Part shown: positions 46,325 through 53,815 of the stretch, in pieces
Position numbering within the stretch: the stretch's first letter is position 1
How the letters are laid out: every line of letters starts with the position of its first letter
NCBI RefSeq assembly: GCF_016026235.1
Contig: NZ_CP065613.1
Strand: one strand, 5' to 3'
Source of the DNA: Escherichia coli
Lineage (GTDB): Bacteria; Pseudomonadota; Gammaproteobacteria; Enterobacterales; Enterobacteriaceae
DNA length: 64,000 bases
Notes under the pieces: model-generated
Databases searched by the model: none
What the model was told of the DNA's origin: nothing
Seen by the model: only the letters and a program-made list of their open reading frames with translations
Position numbers and translations under genes: made by a program

Positions 46325-46356
46325 ACCAGAAAAAACAAAACCCGCCGAAGCGGGTT
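46325..46356 (-). terminator. Rho-independent terminator after hok locus
   Basis: minus-strand AACCCGC-TTCG-GCGGGTT hairpin followed by T-run. Confidence 0.6.
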
Positions 46357-46424
46357 AAGTGCGGGTGCGTTGAGGATGCCTGACACATCAGCGGTGGCGA
46401 GGGATTTCTCCCCCGCCGGGTCTC

Positions 46425-46580
46425 TTACTCCTCAGGTTCGTAAGCTGTGAAGACAGCGACCTCCGTCTGGCCGGTTCGGATTCGTACCTCGCAGAGGTCT
46501 TTCCTCGTTACCAGTGCCGTCACTATGACGGTTAAACAGATGACGATAAGGGCGATTAACATCGCCTTTTGCTGCTTCAT
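46425..46580 (-). CDS. hokD: Hok/Gef-family type I toxin (HokD-like)
   Basis: 51 aa MKQQKAMLIALIVICLTVIVTALVTRKDLCEVRIRTGQTEVAVFTAYEPEE; overlapping 70-aa mok-like frame 46425..46637. Confidence 0.85.
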   Translation of the reverse strand: MKQQKAMLIALIVICLTVIVTALVTRKDLCEVRIRTGQTEVAVFTAYEPEE

Positions 46581-46839
46581 AGCCTGCTTCTCCTTGCCTT
46601 TCGGCACGTAAGAGGCTAACCTACATGTGTTCAGCATGGATTGAGCCTCAGATTAATGTTAAGCGTCTTGCAGGACGCGTAATGTTAACTGGGGCTTTTC
46701 TCTATCTGCCTTTTGGTGTTCATGCCTGAGACAGATAGCCTCAAGCACCCGCAGTCATTCTACTTAACTAAGATTTCCCTGCAAACCGTTTTTGTCCGGC
46801 ACAGTAAATATCCAACTAAACCAATAGCGTTCGCTGTAT

Positions 46840-47058
46840 TTACCGCCAGTATTCAATGCACATGACCGCCATGAACACCCCTAAAAAAAGGGCATTTATA
46901 TGTCCAAACATTAATATCAAAACATCAATTTTTTCCATATACCTTGCTGTGAAGATGATGGGCATACATGATGCGAACAACCAGAACGCAACAAACAAAA
47001 ACTGCAATGCGTTTTTCATTATTCCCCCTACAATCAATGTGCAATAACATTTAAACAC
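46840..47058 (-). CDS. hypothetical small membrane protein
   Basis: 72-aa ORF with two hydrophobic helices in an AT-rich stretch. Confidence 0.3.
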   Translation of the reverse strand: MFKCYCTLIVGGIMKNALQFLFVAFWLFASCMPIIFTARYMEKIDVLILMFGHINALFLGVFMAVMCIEYWR

Positions 47059-47231
47059 ACCTCAATTTGGCCGGACATATAAATATCTAAACCAGAAAAA
47101 ATCACTTACATAGCGTTACAAACTCTTTAGTCTAAATACTCATCGTAAAACATTCCCCATACTTATCAGTCCGTTCCGCGCCAGGTAGCTTATTGCCTTA
47201 TCTGGCAACCTATAATCAGGTTTCCGCTTTT

Positions 47232-47654
47232 TCAGTTGGCTGGTCGTTTAACCGACATAGTTAACCCATTAATCTGGTTGCCGGATGCTGGTGGATTTTC
47301 GCGTTTTAGTTGTTCATAAAAGTGCACAGCTTTAACCAGTTCTTCTGATGTAACCGGGACTGGTGGGGCAGTGAATAAGGCCTGAATTTCATAGTTCGGC
47401 CTGTCGTTACAATCCTCTTTTTTCGGTACATATTTCCAGTCACCAACCCACAACTCCCCCTGAGAGTCCATAACACCTTTTTTCACGTAGCGATATCGCC
47501 ACGCTATCGGCTCTGCTTCCAGCGATGCCCGTGCAATTTTGAATAACTCGCCCTCTACTCGCGCCATCCCTGAATTGGGGTGGCATTTCGTAATCGCTAT
47601 TTTTAATTTGGCTTCTTCGATTAATTGTTCTTTTGTTAATTCAGTCATTTTCAT
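47232..47654 (-). CDS. hypothetical phage protein
   Basis: 140-aa ORF in nin-equivalent region. Confidence 0.45.
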   Translation of the reverse strand: MKMTELTKEQLIEEAKLKIAITKCHPNSGMARVEGELFKIARASLEAEPIAWRYRYVKKGVMDSQGELWVGDWKYVPKKEDCNDRPNYEIQALFTAPPVPVTSEELVKAVHFYEQLKRENPPASGNQINGLTMSVKRPAN

Positions 47655-53757: not shown

Positions 53758-53815
53758 TTTCTGGTGACGTTTGGCGGTATCAGTTTTACTCCGTGACTGC
53801 TCTGCCGCCCTTTTT
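53758..53815 (+). ncRNA. dicF: DicF-like sRNA
   Basis: TTTCTGGTGACGTTTGGCGGTATCAGTTTTACTCCGTGACTGCTCTGCCGCCCTTTTT matches recalled DicF; lies just upstream of dicB. Confidence 0.6.

Follow-up and report, generated by a model that had tools for sequence, protein, structure and literature searches.

The 64,000-nucleotide (nt) stretch of Escherichia coli DNA analyzed here (the window; contig NZ_CP065613.1 of assembly GCF_016026235.1, numbered from its first letter) carries a Qin-like lambdoid prophage, and in the early-right (replication-to-Q) arm of this prophage we found two adjacent yet separable units. The first is a hokD/mok/sok toxin-antitoxin locus that appears intact, and the second is a separate gene for a 59-amino-acid (aa) protein of the inner membrane. 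We put the probability of this two-unit reading at about 80%. As far as a sequence can reveal it, the hok/mok/sok part is complete, with every hallmark that can be read in this way, and it is already known in kind. The neighboring open reading frame (ORF) is, in our judgment, likely to be a real, conserved and usually unannotated gene. The coordinates of all features are given in Table 1.

The toxin had been proposed as a 51-aa hokD-type protein in an earlier interpretation made from the letters of this DNA without database searches (hereafter, the sequence-only reading). Indeed, it matched the HOK_GEF family over its full length and was 100% identical to K-12 HokD/RelF (b1562), and the Prokaryotic Genome Annotation Pipeline (PGAP) annotates this gene as hokD in genomes of 98% identity. 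The overlapping mok-like frame and the downstream terminator suggested at that time were recovered as well. The first 19 residues of mok are identical to those of the annotated MokW of phage 933W, and its Shine-Dalgarno sequence (GAGG, 46649..46646) lies 8 nt ahead of the ATG. The promoter-like site upstream of hok would place the 5' end of the hok mRNA near 46750. Rfam model RF01794 covers 46750..46575 on the minus strand over its full length (118.9 bits), and the minimum free energy (MFE) fold of the hok mRNA gave a z score of -7.3 against shuffled sequences. In the MFE structure predicted for the RNA folded alone, the first 12 bases (GGGUGCUUGAGG) pair with CCUCAACGCACCC. This is in agreement with the tac/fbi model as summarized in PMC9841398, in which the ends of the hok mRNA pair with each other. 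In plasmid-borne hokD loci, homology to the window spans exactly 46363..46753, from fbi through tac. A match to isrK in the hok 3' untranslated region (UTR) (46335-46416, minus strand) reached only 27 bits against a gathering score of 50 (E=3e-4) and was discarded as a probably generic two-hairpin similarity.

We placed the antisense RNA by homology, using the sokW misc_RNA (71 nt, plus strand) of GenBank AF125520, which aligned without indels. From the Sok promoter through the Sok 3' end, a single base differs from sokW of 933W/Sp5, located in the terminator loop, and the promoter sequence is identical to that of sokW. The predicted Sok RNA folds with -30 kcal/mol (z=-5.0) and is complementary to both the mok Shine-Dalgarno sequence (46649-46646) and the mok AUG. 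An antisense promoter and a structured RNA are thus present opposite mok, as the sequence-only reading supposed. It was right about the existence and the strand of Sok and wrong about its position, since the range it guessed (46580..46660) holds the promoter and only the 5' half of the RNA. The sokW RNA of the Stx2 prophage Sp5/phage 933W has been tested experimentally (PMC8621323, Takada et al. 2021): toxicity of hokW and its neutralization by sokW were shown for this near-identical locus, and changing the -10 hexamer TAACCT in a 'promoter-less' sokW mutant (primers YO-421/422) abolished antitoxin activity. Primers and probes of PMC8621323 match the window exactly (YO-422 at 46624-46649, Northern probe YO-592 at 46629-46658), and primer YO-406, the start of the functional sokW clone, corresponds to window position 46577. 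A generic promoter scan overlooked the Sok promoter, which matches the consensus at only 7 of 12 positions. We also rejected RF01794 as a locator of Sok, although the sequence-only reading had counted on an Rfam scan for this. The match is to the strand of hok itself, beginning at the 5' end of the mRNA and ending at the hok AUG, and did not delimit Sok; since the model describes the hok leader in sense, neither the position nor the strand of Sok is given by its matches. RF01794 carries the name 'sok antitoxin (CssrC)', and its matches therefore imply the wrong strand for Sok.

Compared with hokW-sokW of Sp5/933W, the leader, mok N terminus, Sok promoter, 5' tail and terminator hairpin are alike except for the one loop base; both toxins have 51 aa and both loci belong to lambdoid prophages. 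The two differ in the Hok C terminus (AVFTAYEPEE in the window, AVFVDYESEK in HokW, which is 88% identical to the window Hok), in the 3' end past fbi and in the upstream neighbor, 933W being without the small membrane gene. The hokD (relF) locus of the K-12 Qin prophage encodes an identical Hok, has the same downstream neighbors (rem and ydfU/DUF968) and shares the prophage type (DicF, dicB, ydfABC), but it retains only the equivalent of window positions 46331..46594. From the Sok -35 element on, the leader, mok, Sok and upstream sequence are replaced by relE-relB-ydfV-flxA. The window thus presumably represents the intact, ancestral form of a hokD locus that is degenerate in K-12. With hok/sok (parB) of plasmid R1, the locus shares the Hok/Gef toxin, the 19-codon mok lead-in, tac and fbi, an antisense RNA folded as a tailed hairpin and the Rfam leader model. 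The sequences are only distantly related (HokW shares 44% identity with R1 Hok; PMC8621323), and the locus is in a prophage and not on a plasmid, which makes a role in induction or lysis more likely than one in plasmid addiction.

One part of the antitoxin target proved highly variable. Among 80 syntenic copies of the locus, a 25-nt patch (46646..46622) comprising the sokT loop, the mok start and the Sok 5' tail had a nucleotide diversity (pi) of 0.19, as against 0.007-0.06 elsewhere in the hok mRNA and 0.014 in the hok ORF; the Sok terminator hairpin and the hok ORF were nearly invariant. At least seven alleles of the patch were found, all keeping the mok AUG and most of the stem, and a neighboring hairpin showed two compensatory pairs. 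The sokT loop lies at 46634..46626, after the mok AUG, and in the window its sequence CUGAACA includes a CUGA (YUNR-type) motif. The window has the sokW allele, which was found in 11 of the copies; the commonest allele (52 of 80) is a different one. This pattern suggests a diversification of Sok antitoxin specificity. Literature searches on hok/sok elements and Sok cross-talk returned no description of a hypervariable Sok loop.

The second unit lies in a stretch that is very AT-rich, as had been noticed before, with 34.5-38% GC at 46800-47200 compared to 44-58% in the flanks. The 72-codon frame proposed here by the sequence-only reading is indeed open, but the likely protein is shorter. Exhaustive HMMER and profile searches recovered a conserved homologue, namely, a second E. 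coli clade (P0037/P0042, recorded on at least 1,000 contigs) of exactly 59 aa with 44% identity. Because this paralogue has an in-frame stop six codons before its ATG, the conserved product would start at the ATG at 47019 and not at the GTG at 47058. The two clades share 59% nucleotide identity, distributed over the codon positions as.58/.69/.49, the third position being the least conserved. Between the clades, the proportions of nonsynonymous (pN) and synonymous (pS) differences were 0.34 and 0.70, respectively, corresponding to a ratio of nonsynonymous to synonymous substitution rates (dN/dS) of about 0.23; the other five frames all gave higher ratios. Residues common to both clades are W13, S17-C18, P20-I-I, T24, L-x-F-G (36-39), N-A-L (42-44) and G47. 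In viruses, the gene was intact in 120 of the 124 contigs that share its first 32 nt.

The gene is preceded by a block that always accompanies it. From 47159 down, 98-100% of the haplotypes were at least 85% identical, compared to only 22-66% further upstream, and the mosaic breakpoints lie left of this block. A perfect 12-nt inverted repeat connects the 5' UTR of the small gene (47073-47084) with codons 39-42 (46894-46905); one of its pairs is G-C in 49, G-U in 27, A-U in 4 and A-C in 0 of the 80 copies, which hints at a long-range mRNA structure. Frameshifts occurred in the T7 run in 3 of the 124 viral contigs, and most database protein variants diverge at the same place; these could be sequencing errors or genuine slippage. 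A word-indexed search returned only E. coli/Shigella proteins at 75% identity or more, many of them with frameshifted C termini.

Several observations speak against a gene at this place and would favor the alternative of a spacer, AT-rich and T-skewed, in which a frame has stayed open by chance and looks hydrophobic through its composition. In Markov shuffles of 46786..47231, an ORF of at least 72 codons arose in 18% and one of at least 59 codons in 40% of the cases, so that the length of the frame alone is not beyond chance, and we rejected ORF length as coding evidence. T-rich DNA encodes hydrophobic residues by default, which makes the hydrophobicity of the product weak evidence for a gene. 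Within the clade of the window, all 11 polymorphic sites in the 124 viral contigs were nonsynonymous and none was synonymous, a pattern unlike purifying selection; most of these replacements exchange one hydrophobic residue for another, and the sample, small as it is, is opposite in direction to the dN/dS between the clades. PGAP never annotates the small gene or its paralogue, the family is confined to E. coli and Shigella and has no match among known families, and the frame is broken in some copies at the T7 run. Finally, no consensus promoter was found upstream of the gene in either clade by a scan that also missed the validated Sok promoter, and the paralogue might for this reason be silent in the prophage remnant that harbors it. 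Despite these points, we consider a mere chance frame decidedly unlikely. A paralogue of 59% nucleotide identity has kept the same start, stop and length, the codon pattern is of the coding type with a dN/dS of 0.23 in this frame only, the consensus Shine-Dalgarno sequence is well spaced, and more than 95% of the copies are intact.

Coding on the opposite strand fared worse. An ORF of 63 to 84 aa is annotated there in some phage records; in the window it exists at 46856..47047 (+), and its counterparts are called 'hypothetical protein' in PV340562 and 'hornerin' in ON470612/ON470619. The antisense frames of the small gene all hold stops in the paralogue, the dN/dS of the plus-strand frame is about 1.0, and no ORF is listed on that strand in a paralogue locus. 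A plus-strand gene is therefore extremely improbable, and we set the 'hornerin' ORF aside as an antisense shadow ORF that looks like a wrong-strand call.

Returning to the minus-strand gene, we examined what kind of protein it would encode. The product has two hydrophobic segments, at about residues 4-25 and 33-55, separated by a short charged loop (RYMEKID), and a grand average of hydropathy of 1.2. An AlphaFold2 model placed helices at 2-24 and 30-58 with a mean predicted local distance difference test score of 74. These segments and modeled helices make the two-helix membrane protein of the sequence-only reading plausible. A rival to this topology is a lipobox at Cys18. According to this alternative, residues 1-17 would be a signal for signal peptidase II, Cys18 would be lipidated, and the lipid together with the second hydrophobic segment would anchor the mature peptide of 42 residues in the inner membrane. 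In both clades, the sequence shows an N-terminal lysine or arginine, a hydrophobic stretch and a lipobox at Cys18. The PROSITE-type and G+LPPv2 lipobox rules both recognize Cys18 in all three alleles (LFASC, LFVSC and IVISC), which cover the two clades and, for that of the window, its two major alleles; all three have lysine or arginine at positions 2-3. Only 6.7% of shuffles of residues 3-25 satisfied the rules, and S17, C18 and P20 are invariant between the clades. However, phenylalanine or valine at -3 and serine at -1 are minor lipobox variants. Moreover, hydrophobicity continues past Cys18 (MPIIFTA), as it would in an uninterrupted transmembrane helix, and AlphaFold2 gave one helix from 2 to 24. 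We thus regard a lipoprotein anchored by lipid and second segment as possible but doubtful.

Family searches with the small protein gave no match in Pfam (E<=0.01), PHROGs, NCBIfam or PADLOC, and PADLOC recognized neither the paralogue nor Hok. In a Foldseek search of the AlphaFold2 model against viral structures, the best hit had E=0.5, with only generic helical hairpins, and a full-text literature search with peptide strings of the protein found no paper. Its GenBank entries, from E. coli and four Shigella species, read 'hypothetical protein' or 'membrane protein'. Like T4 Imm, HK97 gp15, the class II holins and Cor/Llp, it is small, phage encoded and predicted to be membrane anchored. It differs from phage exclusion and lysis proteins in lacking any homology or fold match and a charged C-terminal tail, and in its location outside the lysis cassette. 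A possible lipobox is shared with the Cor/Llp lipoproteins, but its mature part is hydrophobic, unlike theirs. A class II holin or pinholin was rejected: two helices are predicted, but the C terminus is only EYWR and the lysis cassette lies elsewhere, beyond Q and the tRNAs.

The sequence-only reading also considered a second membrane toxin, of a type I-like or GhoT-like kind, which would come with its own RNA antitoxin. GhoT has about 57-59 aa and two hydrophobic helices, and the small protein resembles GhoT/OrtT (type V toxin-antitoxin systems) in size and in its two predicted helices. Size and hydrophobicity would fit a toxin, the gene adjoins a type I locus in two lineages, the mRNA region folds slightly better than shuffles (z=-2.7), and the 12-nt complementarity between 5' UTR and ORF is kept through G-C, G-U and A-U variants. 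Against this, no GhoT/OrtT match was obtained at E<=0.01, nor one to any other toxin family in Pfam, and no GhoS-like partner is present. Known type I toxins span the membrane with one helix only, and copies of the gene are rarely inactivated (about 3%). The strand opposite the small gene has no Rfam match and no promoter-like or terminator-like signal, a weak negative given that the same scan missed the Sok promoter. Overall, a second toxin appears very unlikely. In the reading that we favor, the small protein does not belong to the hok/sok toxin-antitoxin module, and it is not an obligate partner of hok.

The exclusion protein also suggested in the sequence-only reading would be a moron, that is, a lysogenic-conversion or superinfection-exclusion factor that the prophage expresses and that would block DNA entry of related phages. 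The low GC content (35-38% versus about 50% in the flanks) and the predicted small membrane protein are consistent with this. So is the persistence of the paralogue in 1,045 genomes within a remnant whose integrase, hok and sit neighbors are fragments. Nevertheless, a promoter or terminator of its own was not detected, neither PADLOC nor PHROG gave a match, and the copies in the remnant share at least 99% identity, which means that their intactness may simply reflect recent descent. A moron is thus unlikely, though less so than a toxin.

The relation of the small gene to hok was assessed from its distribution. The hok start lies 437-439 nt past the small-gene ATG, as in the window, in 80 of the 102 viral contigs with enough sequence, and the gene occurs without an adjacent hok in 21 of them as well as in strain 300709 and phage PhiR42_1. 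In PhiR42_1, an insertion sequence and flxA-ydfV-relB part the leader and small ORF from the rest of the locus, which is broken at the hok start codon, and in strain 300709, IS150 is inserted within the hok leader. Conversely, the small gene is absent from 933W and from the plasmid hokD loci. Among 5,426 complete E. coli genomes, the small-gene region was present in about 1,543 (about 28%) at 95-99% identity, and together with hok in 1,067. The paralogue was found in 1,045 of the same genomes (about 19%), with copies at least 99% identical, and no feature is annotated under its match in any of the 12 records listed. Carriers of the small gene include ATCC 43886, ATCC 25922 and ECOR13, and the paralogue is present in the type strain, ATCC 11775. 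K-12 has neither of the two. Scanning 100,044 species-representative genomes with a six-frame pattern search yielded a single locus, a 95%-identical copy on a 5.5-kb contig (JAIJJM010000167.1) of a metagenome-assembled genome named 'Collinsella sp.', which is probably mis-binned.

The paralogue sits in the decayed remains of a prophage at the Rac attachment site, ttcA, with an integrase fragment on one side and sitD fragments and uspF on the other; in E. coli CP042246, for example, it lies between ttcA and uspF (positions 8001-8325 of the extracted locus). About 55 nt downstream of it, we found a 5'-truncated hok remnant, extending from about codon 24 to beyond the stop, with a local alignment score of 70 compared to a shuffle maximum of 26. 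The remnant indicates that the pairing of small gene and hok is old, but it reflects one ancestral gene order and not independent associations.

In the window, a gap of 54 nt separates the small gene from the hok promoter, which lies downstream on the same strand, and no terminator-like site was found between the small-gene stop (46840) and the hok -35 element (46785). The same layout occurs in both deeply diverged lineages. If the small protein were functionally coupled to Hok, in a three-part module rather than the two-part hok/sok, read-through from the early operon could yield a joint transcript and the protein could modulate Hok at the membrane, whether by conferring immunity, by setting the timing or by acting as a co-toxin upon induction. 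We consider such coupling most improbable.

Table 1. Features of the hokD/small-gene region and further RNA matches in the window
Feature	Positions	Strand	Description
hok	46425..46580	-	51 aa; Pfam PF01848 (HOK_GEF), full length, E=1.2e-23, 82.9 bits (cutoff 22)
mok	46425..46637	-	70 aa; in-frame 19-codon N-terminal extension of hok; ATG 46637..46635
hok promoter-like site	46757..46785	-	TTTGCA-17 nt-TAGAAT; 9/12 consensus matches; kept in 80 related loci
hok mRNA, full length (predicted)	46330..46750	-	about 420 nt: leader, mok/hok, 3' UTR, terminator
tac element (predicted)	46739..46750	-	mRNA 5' end, GGGUGCUUGAGG; predicted partner fbi
fbi element (predicted)	46363..46375	-	CCUCAACGCACCC, close to mRNA 3' end; partner of tac
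hok intrinsic terminator stem	46339..46356	-	AACCCGCTTCGGCGGGTT, then T run; just beyond the range reported earlier
sokT hairpin of hok mRNA	46612..46649	-	consensus fold of 7 alleles
Sok promoter	46594..46622	+	-35 TTGCCT (46594-46599), 17-nt spacer, -10 TAACCT (46617-46622)
Sok RNA	46629..46699	+	71 nt: 14-nt single-stranded 5' tail, long hairpin, U-rich 3' end
Small gene (likely)	46840..47019	-	59-aa hydrophobic protein MKNALQFLFVAFWLFASCMPIIFTARYMEKIDVLILMFGHINALFLGVFMAVMCIEYWR; ATG 47019
Mechanical ORF	46840..47058	-	72 aa, GTG start; extra 13 codons not conserved as coding
Small-gene Shine-Dalgarno sequence	47024..47028	-	GGGGG here, AGGAGG in many alleles; 4-5 nt before ATG
Upstream block	47020..47159	-	always accompanies small gene; 5' UTR or possible promoter region
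T7 homopolymer	46883..46889	-	codons 44-46 of small gene; site of most frameshifted variants
rseX	5341-5430		Rfam match
IS009	14635-14838		Rfam match
CssrB	15595-15774		Rfam match
Four prophage tRNAs	43368-43674		Rfam matches
DicF	53759-53810		Rfam match
tRNA	58226-58312		Rfam match
tRNA	59304-59376		Rfam match

The gene order around both units was read with the help of the annotation of a close relative genome (94.5% identity over 4.4 kb, 98.4% for a 1-kb query). On the minus strand, replication genes, DUF977, DUF4406, Ead/Ea22, a 140-aa ORF and the small ORF precede hok, which is followed by a rem-like gene, DUF968 (ydfU), rusA, a Q-like gene, tRNAs and the lysis genes. The ydfABC/dicB genes of the window share 96% identity with those of K-12. 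The 140-aa ORF (47140-47654, minus strand) belongs to PHROG 660, of unknown function, and is a frameshift-truncated allele. Its homologue in other contigs has 171 aa and ends at a TGA matching window position 47140; 47140-47208 is thus an out-of-frame C-terminal remnant, and the true spacer to the small gene is about 120 nt.

The anatomy of the RNAs and proteins described here can be combined with the dynamics established in experiments on R1 hok/sok and sokW. In the first unit (46330-46785), a stable hok mRNA would be made from its own promoter and kept inert by the pairing of its tac and fbi ends, until slow trimming at the 3' end lets it refold and expose the ribosome site of mok. The short-lived Sok would use its 5' tail to pair with the sokT loop, where mok begins, blocking translation of mok and, by coupling, of hok, and the duplex would be marked for RNase III. 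Once Sok synthesis stops, upon prophage induction or loss, Hok would be made and would damage the inner membrane. The second unit (46840-47019) has a strong ribosome site and no recognizable promoter or terminator of its own, and it is for this reason most likely transcribed with the phage early operon, toward hok. Its product would insert in the inner membrane as a helical hairpin and may act as an accessory membrane protein of the phage.

Taken as a whole, the finding is an ordinary one. It opens two leads, both modest: a family of small proteins that annotation has passed over, and a Sok loop that is hypervariable. Beyond an intact form of the locus truncated in K-12 and exact Sok coordinates for a widespread allele, little about hok/sok is new here. 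The gain from the second unit is a modest one, a conserved and unstudied family of small membrane proteins, or possibly lipoproteins, that RefSeq annotation omits; strong phenotypes, among them exclusion, altered lysis timing and toxicity, are frequent for the small membrane proteins that prophages encode. The variable Sok loop, in turn, suggests that prophage hokD loci may fall into antitoxin specificity groups, which would matter for cross-protection and for competition among prophages that reside together.

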